This document shows positions 1,369-16,463 of a stretch of DNA of 40,230 bases, piece by piece (position 1 is the stretch's first letter; the number at the start of each line of letters is the position of its first letter). Location: positions 1 to 40,230 of the IMG/VR virus record IMGVR_UViG_2563366875_000002; one strand, 5' to 3'. The stretch comes from a virus. Lineage: Duplodnaviria > Heunggongvirae > Uroviricota > Caudoviricetes. The position numbers and the translations under genes were made by a program. Under the pieces are notes generated by a model. The model had not been told where the DNA came from, searched no databases, and was given only the letters and a program-made list of their open reading frames with translations.

Positions 1369-1444
1369 GCCGATATAGCTCAGTTGGTAGAGCAGCGCAT
1401 TCGTAATGCGAAGGTCGTAGGTTCGACTCCTATTATCGGCACCA
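1369..1444 (+). tRNA. thrW: tRNA-Thr (anticodon CGU)
   Basis: 76 nt cloverleaf GCCGATATAGCTCAGTTGGTAGAGCAGCGCATTCGTAATGCG...GGTTCGACTCC...CACCA; anticodon loop TTCGTAA gives CGT; encoded CCA end; sits directly after proA. Confidence 0.9.
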
Positions 1445-9098: not shown

Positions 9099-9484
9099 AG
9101 TTGATCCTTCCTTTCCCGCCCAGCGTGAACACGTACTGGCGACACCCCAACAAAGGGGCATTTGCTGGTAAGAGCCTGATAAGCGCGGCGGGGCGAAAAT
9201 TTCAGAGCGCGGCGTGTGCAGCAATAGTTGAGCAGTTACGTCGTCTGCCAAAACCAACGTCGGCACCTGCTTCAGTGGAGATCGTGTTGTTTCCTCCGGA
9301 TAACCGGATCCGCGATCTGGACAACTATAACAAGGCGCTGTTTGACGCCCTGACCCACGCGGGTGTGTGGGAAGACGACAGTCAGGTGAAAAGAATGCTG
9401 GTGGAGTGGGGACCGGTTATCCCGGAAGGGAAGGTCGAGATCACTATCAGTAAGTACGAGAAAACGGCGGGTGCAGCCGCCTGA
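9095..9484 (+). CDS. rusA: Holliday junction resolvase RusA
   Basis: 129 aa; motifs LPFPPSVNTYWR and RDLDNYNKALFDALTHAGVWEDDSQV typical of RusA. Confidence 0.88.
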   Translation: MKLILPFPPSVNTYWRHPNKGAFAGKSLISAAGRKFQSAACAAIVEQLRRLPKPTSAPASVEIVLFPPDNRIRDLDNYNKALFDALTHAGVWEDDSQVKRMLVEWGPVIPEGKVEITISKYEKTAGAAA

Positions 9485-9503
9485 TTAAGAGGAGAAACGA
9501 AGT

Positions 9504-10301
9504 ATGAATAATCTGATGGTTATTGATGGTATTGAAGTTCGTCGTGATGCTTATGGGCGTTACAGCCTGAACGATCTGCACAGGGCTGCTGGTTCTCTGG
9601 ATAAGCATAAGCCTGCATTCTGGCTCCGCAATGAGCAAACTGAGCGTTTAATAAGCGAGTTGCAGATTTGCAACTCGGTCAATATAGAGCCAGTTAACGT
9701 TATTCGTGGCGGAAATAACCAGGGGACGTATGTCTGCAAAGAACTGGTGTATGCCTATGCAATGTGGATCAGCCCGTCATTCCATCTGAAGGTGATCCGT
9801 ACTTTCGACATGGTAACCAGCGCACCGGAAAAATTATCCGGACAGGCTGCTGACAAGATGCAGGCTGGTGTGATTCTGCTGGACTTTATGCGTCGGGAGT
9901 TAAACCTGTCTAACTCATCTGTGCTTGGTGCCTGTCAGAAACTCCAGGAGGCTGTTGGCTTACCGAATCTGGCACCGCGCTATGCCATTGATGCTCCTGC
10001 TGATGCACACGATGGCTCAAGTCGCCCGACACTGTCACTGAGTGCACTGCTGAAACAGTATGGTATACGCCTGACGGCTAATCAGGCATATCACCAGATG
10101 GTGAAGCTGGGGATCGTCGAGCAGCGCGAACGATACAGCCGTACCGCGATTAACAACATCAAAAAATTCTGGTCGCTGACAGCGAAAGGCTGTATGTTCG
10201 GCAAGAACATCACCAGTCCCGCAAATCCGCGCGAGACGCAGCCGCATTTCTTCGAATCCCGATTCCCTGAGCTGTTAAAGCTGCTCGATACCGTTCATTG
10301 A
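9504..10301 (+). CDS. KilA-N domain protein (antirepressor-like)
   Basis: 265 aa; N-terminal KilA-N-like DNA-binding region (IDGIEVRRDAYGRYSLNDLHRAAG...). Confidence 0.75.
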   Translation: MNNLMVIDGIEVRRDAYGRYSLNDLHRAAGSLDKHKPAFWLRNEQTERLISELQICNSVNIEPVNVIRGGNNQGTYVCKELVYAYAMWISPSFHLKVIRTFDMVTSAPEKLSGQAADKMQAGVILLDFMRRELNLSNSSVLGACQKLQEAVGLPNLAPRYAIDAPADAHDGSSRPTLSLSALLKQYGIRLTANQAYHQMVKLGIVEQRERYSRTAINNIKKFWSLTAKGCMFGKNITSPANPRETQPHFFESRFPELLKLLDTVH

Positions 10302-10302
10302 G

Positions 10303-11298
10303 GTGACCGTGAGAGCACTACTGACCCCTGAAATTGCCCCGCGTATGGGGATCGTATTGTTCAGGCCAGGTTCAGAGCTGATGCCCCTGTTTATGCAGGG
10401 GCGTGTCCTGCTGGAGCCTGAGCCGGAGCGTTATTCATCTTTCGCCAGTGGTGCCGTTCCGGCGGCATCACAACCGCTGGCGGATGATCCTGCCGTTCGG
10501 GCCGTGTTCCGCAATGAGGCAGTGATCCGTCGTGCTGGTGGCGTGGAATGTCTTGAAAGCTGGTTACTTCGTGAAAAAGGCTGCCAGTGGCCTCATTCCA
10601 ACTGGCACAGCGAGAACATGACCACAATGCGACACGCGCCTGGCGCAATCCGTCTGTGCTGGCACTGCGATAACCAACTGCGCGATCAGTTCACGGAACG
10701 GCTGGAATCAATGGCAACGGATAACTGTGCCCGCTGGGTGTTGTCTGTTGTGCGTCGGGATCTCGGTTTTGATGATAGTCACGTTGTGACAATGCCGGAA
10801 CTGTGCTGGTGGCTGGTTCGTAATGATCTGGCGGATGCCTTACCGGAAAGCGCAGCCCGTAAGGCACTGAGATTACCGAAGCCTGTTGTGCCGTCTGTCA
10901 CCCGGGAAAGTGACCTTGTGCCTTCGGTTCCAGCCACCAGCATCATGCAGGATAAAGCGAAAAAGGTGCTGGCGCTGAAAGTGGAGCCGGAGTCGCCGGA
11001 GTCTTTTATGTTACGCCCCAAACGTCGCCGCTGGGTTAATGAAAAGTACACGCGCTGGGTTAAGACACAGCCGTGTGCATGTTGTGGAAAGCCTGCTGAT
11101 GATCCCCACCACCTGATAGGCCACGGTCAGGGGGGAATGAGTACAAAAGCGCATGACCTCTTTGTGTTGCCTTTGTGCAGAAAGCATCACGACGAGCTGC
11201 ATGCGGATACCGTGGCATTTGAAGAGAAGTATGGCTCCCAGCTGGAGCTGATATTTCGTTTTATCGACCGTGTGTTGGCAATTGGTGTGCTAGCCTGA
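10303..11298 (+). CDS. DUF968-like phage protein with C-terminal HNH-like zinc motif
   Basis: GTG start; C-terminal CACCGKPADDPHHLIGHGQGG...CRKHHDELH. Confidence 0.7.
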   Translation: MTVRALLTPEIAPRMGIVLFRPGSELMPLFMQGRVLLEPEPERYSSFASGAVPAASQPLADDPAVRAVFRNEAVIRRAGGVECLESWLLREKGCQWPHSNWHSENMTTMRHAPGAIRLCWHCDNQLRDQFTERLESMATDNCARWVLSVVRRDLGFDDSHVVTMPELCWWLVRNDLADALPESAARKALRLPKPVVPSVTRESDLVPSVPATSIMQDKAKKVLALKVEPESPESFMLRPKRRRWVNEKYTRWVKTQPCACCGKPADDPHHLIGHGQGGMSTKAHDLFVLPLCRKHHDELHADTVAFEEKYGSQLELIFRFIDRVLAIGVLA

Positions 11299-11312
11299 TT
11301 TGGTGGAGAAAG

Positions 11313-11681
11313 TTGATGCGTGATATTCAGATGGTTCTGGAGCGTTGGGGGGCATGGGCGGCGAGTGATAGTTCAGGCGTTGATTATTCACCTATAGCCG
11401 CTGGGTTTAAGGGACTTCTTCCCTATACAAGCAAGAAACGCTTGGCTTGTTCGGATAGTGATGCCTTAATTATTGAAGGTTGTCTTGCTCGTCTAAAGCA
11501 AAAAAGGCCGGACGAACATTCGCTTCTTGTTGCCCATTACCTATACGGTATCTCTAAAAGAAAGCTCGCCAAGGCTCGTAAAAAAGATGAGAAATTGATA
11601 CGTATAGAAATACAGCTAGCCGAAGGATTTATTGATGGCTGCCTTTCCATGCTAGATCTAACATTAGATTTGGACGTTTAA
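11313..11681 (+). CDS. late-gene antitermination protein Q
   Basis: 122 aa; MRDIQMVLERWGAWAA...IAAGFKGL...CLARLK matches Q-family N-terminus from memory; position immediately before the late region. Confidence 0.8.
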   Translation: MMRDIQMVLERWGAWAASDSSGVDYSPIAAGFKGLLPYTSKKRLACSDSDALIIEGCLARLKQKRPDEHSLLVAHYLYGISKRKLAKARKKDEKLIRIEIQLAEGFIDGCLSMLDLTLDLDV

Positions 11682-11682
11682 T

Positions 11683-11707
11683 AATACGCCCCTGCATGGG
11701 GCGTATT
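11683..11707. terminator. bidirectional stem-loop between convergent Q and KAP NTPase genes
   Basis: perfect 10 bp inverted repeat AATACGCCCC-TGCAT-GGGGCGTATT with AT-rich flanks. Confidence 0.5.
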
Positions 11708-11709
11708 AT

Positions 11710-13041
11710 TTACTGGATGAATGACATTTGATTAATATATTTTATCAATAACTCTCTGGGTGTAGTACTCCAAAAATTTATGTGTTCATAATCAGTATAA
11801 ACATTTGTGAATTTTTTAAGTTCTTCATCACTTTTAGGGGCAAATCGCTCATTAAGAGTAATACTGTCTTTAATTATTCCGAAGAATACAATGGATATTT
11901 CAGGGATTTGCGATCTTCTCTCATAAGAATAAGGTATTTCTTTTATGTTAAGCAGGTCTGCTAAATAAGATATAGATTCAGCGGTAATTTCTTGTTTTAG
12001 TTTTTCCTTGTTACCAAAGCAATGTATGAAGGCAGCTACGACAAAGATCATATTTATTAAAGGATCACTGCTTTTGTTCTCATCGTCGTTTAACAGTTGA
12101 AAAATGTTAAGATTGCGTGAAAATGTTTGTGTTTCACGTAATGATAAGTTGGTTCGTTGAATTAAATCACGGATAAAGTAACCTGATAATCTATTGATTT
12201 TATTCAATAACCTTGTTTTTTCTACAAGGTAATCCCAATATATAACAGAGGCTTTACATACGTTGTGACCATTTATTAAACATGTATCTGGAAGCGTGAT
12301 GGTATATTTTATAAACTTGTCAAGATACTTTTGTGAGTTAATGCTATAACCATAAATATGATTTATAGATGCTTTTAATTGTTCTGTGTTTGTAACTAAA
12401 ATAAAAAAGACATTATTGATGTCAAAAATGTGTTTTATTGTTTCAATGACATTTGTTGAAAAACTCGGCTTACATCGGTCTAATTCATCAATTATAATTA
12501 CGATTTTTTGATTTTTTGATATGCTTTCGATGCAGGATTTAAGTGAATTTATGTTTTTCTCTGAGTCCATATGGTCTTCAAGCAAATTTTCAATAGTCCC
12601 ATCTATTGCTGCATTGCTTGCTTTCTTCATCGCATCTTGGAATTCTTCGGCAACTTCACTAGCCTCCTGTCGTAAAAACCAACCTGCACCAGCTTTTAGT
12701 ACCGTTTTTAAACCAAAGCGAATTGCAGGAAGAGATCTCTTAATGAAGTGTTGTTTTTCTTCCTCAGGCAAAATGCTGGCAATTGCAGAGGTTATGAGAA
12801 GTAATGGAGATTCTGCATGATCCCCTTTAAAGGCATCAATATAAACAACTTTAGATTCAGTTTCTTGCTCAATAATGAGATTTTTCAGTTTGATACTAAA
12901 TTCTGTTTTCCCTGTTCCCCATGCGCCGTCTATTACCAGTGGTGAAATGTCTGCCTCTGGTTTTAGCAACTTGATGATATTTTCAGCGATGTTTCTTCGT
13001 TGGAACTCGTCACGTTCAGTGAAAGATAGTGTATCTAACAT
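11710..13041 (-). CDS. KAP-family P-loop NTPase
   Basis: 443 aa; Walker A DGAWGTGKT (res 38-46), Walker B-like VIIIDELDRC; strongly AT-rich compared with flanking phage genes. Confidence 0.85.
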   Translation of the reverse strand: MLDTLSFTERDEFQRRNIAENIIKLLKPEADISPLVIDGAWGTGKTEFSIKLKNLIIEQETESKVVYIDAFKGDHAESPLLLITSAIASILPEEEKQHFIKRSLPAIRFGLKTVLKAGAGWFLRQEASEVAEEFQDAMKKASNAAIDGTIENLLEDHMDSEKNINSLKSCIESISKNQKIVIIIDELDRCKPSFSTNVIETIKHIFDINNVFFILVTNTEQLKASINHIYGYSINSQKYLDKFIKYTITLPDTCLINGHNVCKASVIYWDYLVEKTRLLNKINRLSGYFIRDLIQRTNLSLRETQTFSRNLNIFQLLNDDENKSSDPLINMIFVVAAFIHCFGNKEKLKQEITAESISYLADLLNIKEIPYSYERRSQIPEISIVFFGIIKDSITLNERFAPKSDEELKKFTNVYTDYEHINFWSTTPRELLIKYINQMSFIQ

Positions 13042-13311
13042 AATATAAACCTATTAACTCCTACAGTAAAAAACGAATAATACGACTTTGGGATTAAAAA
13101 TCATTAACGCGGTCCGCAAAAATTCTTGTAATCTGTTAAGAGTGGTTACTTCGCCACACAGCTTAAACCCGCCGTCGAGCGGTTTTTTTGTACCTGTAAA
13201 CCAAGAGCAGTACGGTAAACACGCTGGTGGTCGTGAATACTGACTTTTTATCTTGCTGGCTTTTTAGACAAGAGTTATTGGTATGTCATGTTAACCAGAA
13301 GGGAAAAAGAC

Positions 13312-13506
13312 ATGCTAAAACAGCAAGATATGACAGAAACGGCGAAAGTTGTTTTTAATGAATTAAGCATCGAACCGGCAACAGTCGGGGAGATTGCACA
13401 AAACACATACCTTTCACGCGAACGCTGTCAGTTAATACTGACCCAGCTGGTTATGGCGGGGCTGGCAGATTACCAGTTCGGCTGTTACAGACGCCTTCAG
13501 CAATGA
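13312..13506 (+). CDS. small hypothetical protein, possible HTH
   Basis: 64 aa from ATG 13312 with RBS AAGGGA; ATVGEIAQNTYLSRERCQLIL resembles a recognition helix; upstream of the methyltransferase. Confidence 0.4.
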   Translation: MLKQQDMTETAKVVFNELSIEPATVGEIAQNTYLSRERCQLILTQLVMAGLADYQFGCYRRLQQ

Positions 13507-13655
13507 AGGGCTTTTAATTTGTGAAAATGGGCGGCTGGTGGGTGTTGGTAGCACCTGCCAGCCATTCGCTCATGCCTACTGGTCACAAGCGAACCACGGC
13601 CCACTGCTTTAGCGCAAAAGCAGAGTGAGCCTACCAGAGTTACGCTTACTGATCC

Positions 13656-14708
13656 ATGAAAAATACTGTAAAAATAAACAGTGTTGATTTAATCAACGCT
13701 GATTGCCTGCATTTTATTCAGTCCCTGCCTGATGATTCCATTGACCTGATTGTTACCGATCCGCCTTACTTCAAGGTGAAACCCAACGGTTGGGACAATC
13801 AGTGGAAAGGGGACGAAGATTACCTTAAGTGGCTGGACCACTGTCTGGCCCAGTTCTGGCGGGTGTTGAAACCTGCCGGAAGCCTTTACCTGTTCTGTGG
13901 GCATCGCCTGGCATCTGATATTGAGATCATGATGCGTGAACGTTTCAACGTGCTTAACCATATCATCTGGGCGAAGCCGTCCGGACGTTGGAATGGGTGT
14001 AATAAAGAAAGTCTGCGCGCATATTTTCCTGCCACAGAGCGCGTTCTGTTTGCTGAACATTACCAGGGGCCATATCGCGGCAAAAGTGACGGCTATGCGG
14101 CAAAAGAAAGGGAACTCAAACAGCACATAATGGCACCGCTGATATCGTATTTCAGGGATGCTCGTGCCGAACTGGGTATAACGGCAAAACAAATTGCCGA
14201 AGCCACAGGTAAGAAAAATATGGTTTCCCACTGGTTTGGTGCCAGTCAGTGGCAGTTGCCGAATGAGGCTGACTATCGGAAGTTACAGGCACTGTTTTCC
14301 CGTATAGCGGCAGAGAAGTTTCAGGAACAACAACTGGAACAACCACACCACCAGCTGGTGGCATCTTATGATTCACTGAATCGCAAATATTCTGAATTGC
14401 TGGATGAGTTTAAATCTCTCCGGCGCTTTTTCTCCGTATCAGTCTCCGTGCCTTATACCGATGTCTGGACGCATAAGCCCGTTCAGTTCTACCCGGGTAA
14501 ACATCCGTGCGAGAAACCGGCGGATATGCTCCGGCAAATAATCAATGCCAGTAGTCGACCTGGTGATCTGGTTGCTGATTTCTTTATGGGATCCGGTTCC
14601 ACAATAAAAGCAGCAATGGCGCTGGGGCGTCGGGCGTTAGGTGTTGAACTTGAGTCAGAGCGGTTTAATCAGACGGTGAAAGAGGTAAGTGAACTGGTGG
14701 GGAAATAA
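13656..14708 (+). CDS. DNA N6-adenine methyltransferase (orphan, beta-class amino-MTase)
   Basis: 350 aa; motif IV DPPY (LIVTDPPYF) near N-terminus and motif I FFMGSGST near C-terminus; no adjacent restriction endonuclease. Confidence 0.88.
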   Translation: MKNTVKINSVDLINADCLHFIQSLPDDSIDLIVTDPPYFKVKPNGWDNQWKGDEDYLKWLDHCLAQFWRVLKPAGSLYLFCGHRLASDIEIMMRERFNVLNHIIWAKPSGRWNGCNKESLRAYFPATERVLFAEHYQGPYRGKSDGYAAKERELKQHIMAPLISYFRDARAELGITAKQIAEATGKKNMVSHWFGASQWQLPNEADYRKLQALFSRIAAEKFQEQQLEQPHHQLVASYDSLNRKYSELLDEFKSLRRFFSVSVSVPYTDVWTHKPVQFYPGKHPCEKPADMLRQIINASSRPGDLVADFFMGSGSTIKAAMALGRRALGVELESERFNQTVKEVSELVGK

Positions 14709-14715
14709 TTCTGGT

Positions 14716-14737
14716 GGCCACGTTGCGTGGCCTTTTT
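14716..14737 (+). terminator. rho-independent terminator after the methyltransferase
   Basis: 7 bp stem GGCCACG-TTG-CGTGGCC followed by TTTTTATTT. Confidence 0.55.
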
Positions 14738-14784
14738 ATTTCCAACACAGCACCCGCAAATATCGCGAGGTGAGAGATGACGAA

Positions 14785-15120
14785 ATGCCTCATAACCCAA
14801 ATACCTGGCCGGACTGGCTGGAGTTGTTTCAGAGCTGGTGGCGTGGAGACACACCGCTGGGTGCAGTGATTATGTCGATCGTTATGGCTGGTTTGCGCAT
14901 CGCCTATTTTGGCGGTGGTGGTGGCTGGAAGCGAAAAACGCTCGAGATTTTGCTATGTGGCGCTCTGACGCTGACCTTTGCATCCGCTCTTGAATATGTC
15001 GGATGGCCTAAATCGCTTTCTGTTGCCATTGGTGGTGGCGTGGGGCTGATCGGTGTCGATGCTATTCGTGGGGCTGCAATGCGAGTAATCGGTAACAAAT
15101 TTGGTAGCTCGAAGGAGTAA
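14785..15120 (+). CDS. holin (three predicted TM segments)
   Basis: internal ATG 14785 after GAGGTGAGAG and downstream of the terminator; three hydrophobic segments and charged C-terminus; immediately precedes endolysin. Confidence 0.72.
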   Translation: MPHNPNTWPDWLELFQSWWRGDTPLGAVIMSIVMAGLRIAYFGGGGGWKRKTLEILLCGALTLTFASALEYVGWPKSLSVAIGGGVGLIGVDAIRGAAMRVIGNKFGSSKE

Positions 15121-15123
15121 TTT

Positions 15124-15600
15124 ATGCAGGCACTAAATTCCCAGCGTAAAGCTTTCCTGGATATGGTGGCATGGTCAGAAGGAACGGATAACGGGCGACA
15201 ACCGACACGTAACCACGGTTATGATGTTATTGTTGGTGGCGAACTGTTCACTGATTACTCCGATCACCCTCGCAAACTTGTCACGCTAAACCCCAAACTC
15301 AAATCAACAGCTGCCGGACGTTACCAGCTTCTTTCACGCTGGTGGGATGCTTACCGTAAACAGCTTGGCCTGAAAGATTTTTCTCCAGAAAGCCAGGACG
15401 CTGTAGCTCTGCAGCAGATTAAAGAGCGTGGTGCTTTACCGATGATTGACCGCGGCAGTATTCGTCAGGCAATCGACCGTTGCAGCAATATCTGGGCGTC
15501 GTTACCTGGTGCAGGTTACGGTCAGTATGAACATAAAATCGGTGACCTGATTGCCCGATTTAAAAAAGCTGGTGGGGTAGTAAATGAAGCTGAGATATAA
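15124..15600 (+). CDS. endolysin (lambda R-like lytic transglycosylase)
   Basis: 158 aa; near-identical by memory to lambda R (NSQRKAFLDMVAWSEGTDNGRQ...). Confidence 0.93.
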   Translation: MQALNSQRKAFLDMVAWSEGTDNGRQPTRNHGYDVIVGGELFTDYSDHPRKLVTLNPKLKSTAAGRYQLLSRWWDAYRKQLGLKDFSPESQDAVALQQIKERGALPMIDRGSIRQAIDRCSNIWASLPGAGYGQYEHKIGDLIARFKKAGGVVNEAEI

Positions 15601-16157: not shown

Positions 16158-16463
16158 TTATTCGTAGTTGTCACCAGGGAAGTATTCCTGAAACTTTGAT
16201 TTTGGGAGCTGGGTTTTCGCGAAGTTCGCAAGCCTTCCTCTTGTAAGCATGTAGTCACACCCACCTTCTTGTTTGAGAAGGTCACCAGCTAATGTCCGAT
16301 ACACAACGTCACTTCGCAAAATTTCAATGGTGGAATTCCTGATGAGAAATGTTTCACACATCGGGCATCTAATTAACCAAGCGGTATCACGGTTCTGCCA
16401 GGTCGCATCTGAATTGCAAGCCGGGCAGCATTTCTGATCTTCTTGTCCTATGACCATTGTCAT
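16158..16463 (-). CDS. hypothetical zinc-ribbon protein (CxxC...CxxC)
   Basis: 101 aa; CPAC at res 12-15 and CPMC at res 33-36; opposite orientation to the flanking late genes. Confidence 0.5.
   Translation of the reverse strand: MTMVIGQEDQKCCPACNSDATWQNRDTAWLIRCPMCETFLIRNSTIEILRSDVVYRTLAGDLLKQEGGCDYMLTRGRLANFAKTQLPKSKFQEYFPGDNYE

Follow-up and report, generated by a model that had tools for sequence, protein, structure and literature searches.

A conserved leader RNA precedes an M.EcoGII-family methyltransferase gene between the antiterminator and lysis genes of an SfV-like lambdoid prophage

Gene content of the locus

The virus record IMGVR_UViG_2563366875_000002 (Caudoviricetes), analysed here over its 40,230 nucleotides (the window), is an SfV-like lambdoid prophage as judged from gene content and from Pfam and tRNA scans. 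This work concerns a cassette that sits between the late-gene antiterminator gene Q and the lysis genes. It consists of a small open reading frame (ORF), a spacer with a conserved and structured leader RNA, and an adenine methyltransferase gene, and it is bracketed by terminator-like hairpins (Table 1). The leader is the only part with real potential for novelty; the gene itself is ordinary. The original prediction, made from the letters of the sequence, had placed the methyltransferase and the small ORF between a divergent KAP NTPase gene and a holin gene, and both neighbours are confirmed.

Table 1. Features of the cassette, followed by those of its surroundings, with positions in the window
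Feature	Position	Strand	Basis
Conserved block, putative late promoter pR' with Q-loading and pause site	13096..13166	+	Alignment across relatives
tR'-like intrinsic terminator hairpin with T7 run, left cassette boundary	13167..13190	+	Fold energy; annotated terminator in SfV
Chi site (GCTGGTGG)	13223..13230	+	Untranslated stretch before the small ORF; conserved across the upstream-region alignment of relatives
Stand-alone winged-helix protein, 64 amino acids (phrog_331; SfV orf47)	13312..13506	+	phrog_331, E 5.9e-35
Second terminator-like hairpin over the stop codon of the small ORF, with U-rich tract	13494..13519	+	Fold energy, compensatory changes
Conserved structured leader RNA, directly before the methyltransferase start codon	13520..13655	+	Conservation, covariation, covariance model
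M.EcoGII-family beta-class N6-adenine DNA methyltransferase (SfV orf48)	13656..14708	+	PF01555 match, M.EcoGII identity
Strong intrinsic terminator between methyltransferase and holin, near right cassette boundary	14716..14741	+	Fold; annotated in SfV
Late-gene antiterminator Q, PF06530 type	11313..11681	+	PF06530, E 1.8e-52
KAP NTPase	11710-13041	-	Pfam scan
Lambda-family holin, first gene of the lysis cassette	14785..15120	+	PF05106, E 5.9e-27; start from SfV S and alignment
Host aldehyde-dehydrogenase-family gene	1-1254
tRNA-Thr	1369-1444		ARAGORN
Integrase	1459-2622	-

The methyltransferase

The methyltransferase ORF encodes 350 amino acids and matches PF01555 (N6_N4_Mtase) over residues 29-341 with E 1.4e-42. 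The DPPY motif at residues 35-38 comes before the FxGxG motif (F-M-G-S-G) at residues 310-314, the order of the beta class. The assignment as an orphan beta-class adenine methyltransferase is supported. A search of solved structures gave the M.BceJIV-like and M.RsrI cores as best matches (E ~1e-24), with no match for the central domain.

Compared with M.EcoGII, 282 of 349 residues are identical (81%) over the full length and without internal gaps, identities that are approximate because the M.EcoGII sequence comes from the supplementary table of the SUPREM paper, a machine-read PDF with evident transcription errors; two single-residue alignment gaps coincide with visible corruption in that copy. 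As a cross-check, the M.EcoGII sequence used is 93.4% identical to the gene product of phage 1720a-02, an enzyme named as very similar to M.EcoGII by Murray et al. 2018 (PMC5778455). The enzyme of the window is 81% identical to that of 1720a-02 and 89% identical to Anc291, an ancestral enzyme of the M.EcoGII clade for which rates of DNA and RNA methylation were measured. The central recognition domain of M.EcoGII comprises residues ~160-237 and contains a helix-turn-helix (PMC11551740), and the helix-turn-helix segment is nearly unchanged in the window (GITAKQIAEATGKKNMVSHWF aligned with GITAKQIADATGKKNMVPHWF of M.EcoGII). By sequence, the gene belongs to the M.EcoGII family.

M.EcoGII, a beta-class enzyme of 349 amino acids, modifies adenine in DNA whatever the sequence context, and RNA is a substrate as well (PMC5778455). 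It is not expressed in its lysogen, and constitutive expression slows growth (PMC5778455; PMC12707154). By homology, the enzyme of the window most probably methylates adenine at N6 in essentially any sequence context, and a discrete methylation motif is unlikely. The premise that a motif could be defined by comparing the methylome of a lysogen with that of a cured strain is therefore doubtful; since the family is non-specific, hunting for motifs in lysogen methylomes will likely come up empty. The absence of a new motif in lysogens had been named among the outcomes that would refute the original prediction, whereas it is just what the silence of M.EcoGII in its lysogen leads one to expect. Annotation pipelines label the gene a 'site-specific DNA-methyltransferase' although the family is non-specific.

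Prevalence and gene order in relatives

The cassette, with at least 80% of the query covered, is present in 2166 of 5426 complete E. coli genomes, and a single genome can hold as many as 8 copies. The protein family comprises over 3000 clusters; of its best 120 matches, those with names all come from Enterobacterales. From the tR' hairpin to the holin gene the window has ~98% DNA identity to SfV orf47/orf48, and the phages cdtI, mEp460 and Ayreon are similarly close. In Stx2a, Stx2c and Stx2e phages (Stx, Shiga toxin), including 1720a-02, the cassette lies between Q and the tRNA-stx genes with ~80% identity. XH988 lacks the cassette and has the tR' hairpin followed directly by the holin gene; relative to XH988 the cassette spans about 13190 to 14765.

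Seven annotated relatives (SfV, MEI008, Stx2a_1447, 1720a-02, Pantoea, Cedecea and Klebsiella aerogenes) share one layout: Q comes first, then a short conserved block, the hairpin, the small ORF, a spacer of ~148 nucleotides (147-150 in Pantoea, Cedecea and Klebsiella aerogenes) and the methyltransferase, followed by lysis genes or tRNA-stx. Four Q types occur in all, two of these families being those of Pantoea, Cedecea and Klebsiella aerogenes. Of 77 near-identical loci on viral contigs, 76 carry Q on the same strand ahead of the cassette, and lysis genes follow it in 63 of 63. The cassette is thus a common unit of lambdoid prophages, already annotated as SfV orf47/orf48, and its enzyme family is characterised.

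In a Klebsiella aerogenes prophage (L091:5196-5883) the small ORF is present and the leader reaches a full score (176 bits), yet no methyltransferase gene is called after them; the methyltransferase has probably been deleted at this locus.

The leader RNA

The spacer between the two genes (13507-13655, 149 nucleotides) is nearly fixed in length. It exceeds both neighbouring genes in conservation: nucleotide identity in the leader is 85-92%, while at the same loci the methyltransferase has 73-82% and the small ORF 39-90% amino acid identity. The leader folds far better than shuffled sequence (z -4.56). Covariation was assessed in a MAFFT alignment of 50 distinct sequences and in a model-based alignment of 100 sequences, and because the sequences are related by descent the shuffle tests given here overstate significance. 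A model of five helices (P1-P5), in which a junction stem UGGGC/GCCCA encloses two hairpins and is followed by two more, pairs 84% of cells in the 50-sequence alignment and has 12 double-change pairs against 5.9 +/- 1.5 in shuffles; none of 500 shuffles reached this number, and slid controls gave at most 8. Across both alignments the double-change pairs number 12-13 against about 6 in shuffles. An alternative model pairs AUGGGCG with CGCUCAU, and GGUCA..AAGCG with CGCUU..UGAUC directly 5' of the AUG. In this model 93% of cells are paired and 7 pairs show double changes, where shuffles give 3.5 +/- 1.0. Both models retain helices over positions -2 to -17 relative to the AUG. The methyltransferase start has no recognisable Shine-Dalgarno sequence, and the site where one is expected is buried in both.

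A covariance model of the leader finds a single significant copy in the window (13507-13661, 170.8 bits), besides a weak reverse-strand match over the same hairpin (13 bits, E 0.43). Applied to 100 loci, it gives one match per locus, in all 100 on the strand of the methyltransferase. On 109 of 110 metagenomic contigs a 21-mer of the leader is followed by the methyltransferase 128-132 nucleotides downstream. Photorhabdus and Xenorhabdus have a shorter leader in which the first hairpin is kept through compensatory changes. Rfam 15 contains no match to the leader even at permissive thresholds, with only noise at E > 5 on 13480-13680, and across 11600-15200 nothing at E <= 1 apart from a chance match on the 14716 hairpin. 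No link of M.EcoGII with leaders or antitermination was found in the searchable literature.

Two other identities for the spacer were tried and rejected. It is not a tRNA or a tRNA remnant, as ARAGORN yields only the tRNA-Thr of Table 1, and it is not a protein-coding gene, as its reading frames are interrupted by stop codons and change register from one indel class to another.

The spacer might instead be conserved as DNA, through a Chi site (GCTGGTGG) and a Dam site, or through a short upstream ORF, and not as a regulatory RNA. The leader does contain Chi at 13534-13541 and GATC at 13651-13654, Chi makes up the invariant 5' arm of hairpin P2, and across the prophage Chi is enriched 11-fold and strand-biased. 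An 8-mer cannot, however, account for ~135 conserved nucleotides, and in Proteus and Xenorhabdus, which lack Chi, the hairpin is still kept by compensatory changes. One P3 pair (66-90) varies through CG (32), UA (22), AU (16) and UG (6) in the 100-sequence alignment, and the G-U pairs suit the strand of the methyltransferase, the one that the covariance model matches across the loci. The short ORF (13574-13630) starts from a conserved CTCATG and has 18 codons in the window; in another indel class it has 28 codons and an ATGA overlap with the methyltransferase start, so that it could mediate translational coupling in some lineages. Its frame and length vary between indel classes, however, and it is absent in Morganellaceae. 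Constraint on DNA or on this ORF as the full explanation is therefore unlikely.

From its conservation and the predicted folds, the leader is a candidate gate on translation, one that would hold back a dangerous enzyme or allow its synthesis only under certain conditions. More specifically, and tentatively, it may represent an undescribed class of cis-regulatory RNA that switches between the P1-P5 fold and the start-pairing fold and thereby gates the toxic methyltransferase; the 64-amino-acid protein, the methyltransferase itself or S-adenosylmethionine/S-adenosylhomocysteine are possible triggers.

Hairpins and placement in the late operon

In the upstream-region alignment of relatives, the block of ~70 bp before the first hairpin accompanies every Q of the PF06530 type. 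It is kept whatever the cargo on the minus strand, which is KAP in the window and XH988, an NYN gene in MEI008, two hypothetical genes in Stx2a_1447 and nothing in 1720a-02, and it is present with or without the methyltransferase cassette downstream. SfV, with another Q type, has no homology upstream of the hairpin and full homology downstream, starting exactly at the hairpin. The block thus follows the Q type and not the cargo, as would be expected if a late promoter specific to Q, together with a Q-loading site, preceded tR'. Read by eye, the block holds a -10-like hexamer at 13129-13134 (TAATCT in the window; TATCAT, TATCGT and CAGTAT in relatives) and an invariant TGnTTACTT at 13144-13152 that could be a sigma-dependent pause element. 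From these features we infer that the block is pR' with its Q-loading site. A structure search with Q, aimed at locating the Q-binding element, gave only a weak match to Q21 (E 0.005).

Both hairpins of the original prediction, at about 13167-13190 and 14716-14737, are present. The downstream one is strong (14716-14732 with a T-run: -12.5 kcal/mol, z -2.8, 0 of 200 shuffles), and Cedecea has a hairpin and T-run of different sequence at the same place. The upstream one is weak in the window and homologous to stronger hairpins in relatives; its stem has four G-C pairs here compared with CCCGC/GCGGG in relatives, and a weaker tR' hairpin might leak more read-through into the cassette. Between them is another hairpin that the original prediction lacked (13494-13509: -8.1 kcal/mol, z -2.1). 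Its stem is kept through compensatory changes (CCTTCA/TGAAGG, CCTCCA/TGGAGG, CCTCCC/GGGAGG), and a long U-run follows in several relatives. A terminating ribosome could block this hairpin and so couple translation of the small ORF to read-through, an idea that is given low weight.

The two genes had been described as a self-contained module. This holds in that the cassette is a discrete mosaic unit, missing as a whole from XH988. For transcription it probably does not hold: the cassette lies behind a hairpin in the position of tR', and a simple consensus scan of 13190-13656 gave no sigma-70-like promoter, so that an autonomous transcription unit is unlikely. Regulation would be supplied by Q, which is outside the cassette proper, and the holin gene continues the late operon. 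In lambdoid and Stx phages pR' is constitutive, its transcripts are terminated at tR', and Q relieves this termination (PMC7547250). Given the placement behind Q and this established mechanism, the simplest model makes the methyltransferase a late gene, in keeping with the silence that M.EcoGII shows in its lysogen.

A rival reading is a sequence-specific orphan methyltransferase that is made in the lysogen and exerts epigenetic control over host or prophage genes. Regulatory roles are known for some orphan methyltransferases of phages (PMC12707154), and the untranslated parts of the cassette hold a conserved GATC and two Chi sites. However, M.EcoGII, the nearest relative that has been characterised, lacks specificity and is not made in its lysogen, the consensus scan gave no promoter-like site downstream of the tR' hairpin, and up to three terminator-like hairpins together with a buried start region suggest silencing. 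Epigenetic control from the lysogen is thus very unlikely.

The small open reading frame

The small ORF had been predicted as a helix-turn-helix-like protein of 64 amino acids, in a region given as starting at 13288. The length is borne out, the predicted fold is a winged helix, and the start is not at 13288. The longest ORF (13288-13506) has 72 amino acids, while homologues all start with MLKQQD or MLNQQD, corresponding to the ATG at 13312 and to 64 amino acids; the ATG at 13288 is not conserved, being ACG in phage 1720a-02. An AlphaFold2 model of the 64-amino-acid protein shows a winged helix of the order H1-H2-H3-beta-beta with a mean pLDDT (predicted local distance difference test score) of 91.5. 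A structure search with this model found generic winged-helix neighbours only (E ~2e-3), among them dimerisation domains of small-molecule O-methyltransferases, DNA-binding domains of MarR and IclR and the mRNA-binding domain of SelB. In Pfam there are only sub-threshold matches to DprA_WH and TrmB. As far as the predicted fold goes, binding to DNA, RNA or protein are all possible.

The small ORF has 318 homologous clusters, and the names listed for them are all of Enterobacterales. When 1.84 billion representative proteins were searched with a profile, 84 clusters came out, nearly all of 45-114 amino acids and stand-alone; the few long matches are short repeated stretches, and none of the 84 clusters is a fusion to a methyltransferase-sized protein. 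Among species-level loci with both the leader and the methyltransferase, ~12 of 75 have unrelated genes in place of the small ORF, and it is missing from 9 of 112 such metagenomic loci. It is therefore dispensable in some lineages. Among the replacements are a zinc-ribbon-like protein of 79 amino acids with the pattern CxxC...CPEC...CPAC (L105:2558-2797 and L107:2558-2797) and a membrane-like protein of ~220-230 amino acids (L097, L101 and L138).

The suggestion that the small ORF acts as a controller is not supported by these results, and with it falls the reading of the cassette as a remnant or variant restriction-modification system with a C-protein-type regulator. Such systems do have a small ORF with a DNA-binding fold upstream of the methyltransferase on the same strand. 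Here, however, the fold is a winged helix and not an Xre/HTH_3 domain, the ORF is absent from the loci just mentioned, and no endonuclease lies beside the cassette or in the annotated relatives. As originally predicted, the methyltransferase has no partner: a Pfam scan of the 28 larger ORFs, which among the structural ORFs at 20.6-35.6 kb covered the tail sheath, found only phage-type HNH, RusA and terminase nucleases. The restriction-modification reading is largely refuted.

The KAP NTPase and other neighbouring genes

A functional link between the methyltransferase and the KAP NTPase, for example as self-protection plus effector in one system, had been put forward as speculation; the two genes do adjoin in the window and in 8 complete E. 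coli genomes (H26-H33), but the link is contradicted, and a joint system is hardly credible, because KAP accompanies only 1 of 77 near-identical cassette loci and occurs without the cassette in several genomes (H44-H50, XH988), its GC content is 28-35% against ~48-51% for the cassette, it matches the stand-alone PADLOC defence candidate PDC-S20 over its full length (E 4.5e-177), and the presumed late promoter and terminator separate it from the methyltransferase. PifA and QatA are more distant matches. The slot between Q and the presumed late promoter is variable in relatives, with an NYN-domain gene, two hypothetical genes or nothing. By composition and distribution, KAP looks like an unrelated AT-rich moron, a candidate for defence, in a variable cargo slot.

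The prophage is integrated beside the tRNA-Thr gene, a layout that we take to be the one described for SfV-type phages at thrW. The integrase gene is followed by genes for an S24-type repressor, CII, replication proteins, RusA, KilA-N and DUF968/HNH, and then by Q; 3' of Q and the lysis genes are HNH, terminase subunits, portal, contractile-tail sheath and tail-fibre genes. An ORF of 101 amino acids on the minus strand (16158-16463), with CCPAC...CPMC motifs and without a Pfam match, is placed between the Rz region and the HNH and terminase genes and may be another small cargo gene.

Chi occurs 18 times in the whole window against 1.6 +/- 1.15 expected, with 16 of the 18 copies on the plus strand; two of them are in untranslated parts of the cassette (13223 and 13534). 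The sites cluster at 9397-15575, with 11 within 6 kb upstream of the terminase region, and most are so oriented that RecBCD coming in from the presumed cos end would encounter them. Enrichment of GATC was looked for and none was found.

Proposed mechanism and its meaning

Taken together, the cassette is probably a late-operon anti-restriction module of an SfV-like lambdoid prophage, with a non-specific enzyme of the M.EcoGII type that is made during lytic growth. An anti-restriction role, one of the two originally suggested, is the best reading of the data. In the lysogen, transcripts from the late promoter would stop at the tR' hairpin. Any read-through would run into the second hairpin, where the small ORF ends, and the third after the methyltransferase, and the methyltransferase start, without a Shine-Dalgarno sequence, would be buried in the conserved RNA structure; together these layers would keep the toxic enzyme off. 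After induction, Q-modified RNA polymerase would pass all three hairpins and the enzyme would be made alongside the lysis and packaging proteins. The DNA of the progeny phage would become heavily methylated and so resist many restriction systems of types I, II and III when a new host is infected.

Several observations weigh against this mechanism or parts of it. The putative promoter has a predicted start only, has no good -35 element and is only ~45 nucleotides from the terminator, and the upstream hairpin is weak (13171-13183 with T7: -6.2 kcal/mol, z -0.57). The function of this orthologue is taken from homology, with the identities subject to the errors in the M.EcoGII copy, and the divergence from M.EcoGII, 19% overall and ~25% in the recognition domain, might in principle have brought back a degree of preference for particular sequences. 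For the leader, the two structures fit the covariation about equally well and any ligand or partner is hypothetical; as its invariant 5' arm holds Chi, part of the conservation may reflect constraint at the DNA level.

The methyltransferase gene adds nothing new in itself, being a widespread orthologue of a known enzyme, one that is sold as a reagent and used for chromatin footprinting. A Q-dependent late operon with up to three hairpins and the leader would explain why the enzyme is silent in lysogens. The mechanism also predicts that prophage virions of ~40% of complete E. coli genomes may carry DNA heavily modified with N6-methyladenine, which bears on restriction barriers, on type IV systems that depend on N6-methyladenine and on phage host range. 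If the leader is indeed a regulatory RNA, it would be a new and very common RNA element of enterobacteria and a handle for controlled expression of M.EcoGII-type enzymes.

Comparison with known systems

The likeness to C-protein type II restriction-modification systems is limited to the small ORF with a DNA-binding fold upstream of the methyltransferase. Unlike these systems, the cassette has no adjoining endonuclease, no Xre-type helix-turn-helix and no evidence of C-box operators. Compared with a moron, it has a terminator downstream and, in the simple consensus scan, no promoter, and its GC content is like that of the phage backbone.

The cassette occupies the same slot between Q and the lysis genes as the cargo of lambdoid phages such as the stx genes and StxS (PMC7547250, PMC6266700), and in Stx2a, Stx2c and Stx2e phages it is found in that very slot. 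The Q type and the promoter block of the window differ from the 933W type, and the predicted transcript from pR' to tR' is ~45 nucleotides compared with 258 nucleotides for StxS. The methyltransferase is not mentioned in the study of the Stx phage pR' region (PMC6266700).

The closest annotated counterpart is SfV orf47-orf48 (NC_003444), which has the same two genes and the same two annotated terminators. SfV differs in having another Q type and no KAP gene, and its two genes are labelled just 'hypothetical protein' and 'DNA methyltransferase'. The closest characterised enzymes are M.EcoGII and M.EcoGI, prophage methyltransferases of E. coli O104:H4 C227-11 (PMC5778455), with which the enzyme of the window shares the beta-class order, a length of 349-350 amino acids, the helix-turn-helix and the location in a prophage of Enterobacteria. 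Publications on M.EcoGII describe neither the placement in the late operon nor the winged-helix ORF ahead of the gene nor the leader.

The com-mom operon of phage Mu offers a parallel of another kind. Com is a zinc-finger RNA-binding protein, unlike the small protein of the window, which is a winged helix and dispensable in some lineages. The two systems have in common a small ORF immediately upstream of the gene for the modifying enzyme, and the enzyme start in the window is predicted to be sequestered in RNA structure. Mom modifies DNA against restriction, is toxic and stays silent in lysogens (PMC12707154), which is what is proposed here for the methyltransferase. Transcription of mom depends on C and on Dam/OxyR, while that of the cassette would depend on antitermination by Q. 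The resemblance may thus be one of working logic and not of membership in the same family of systems.

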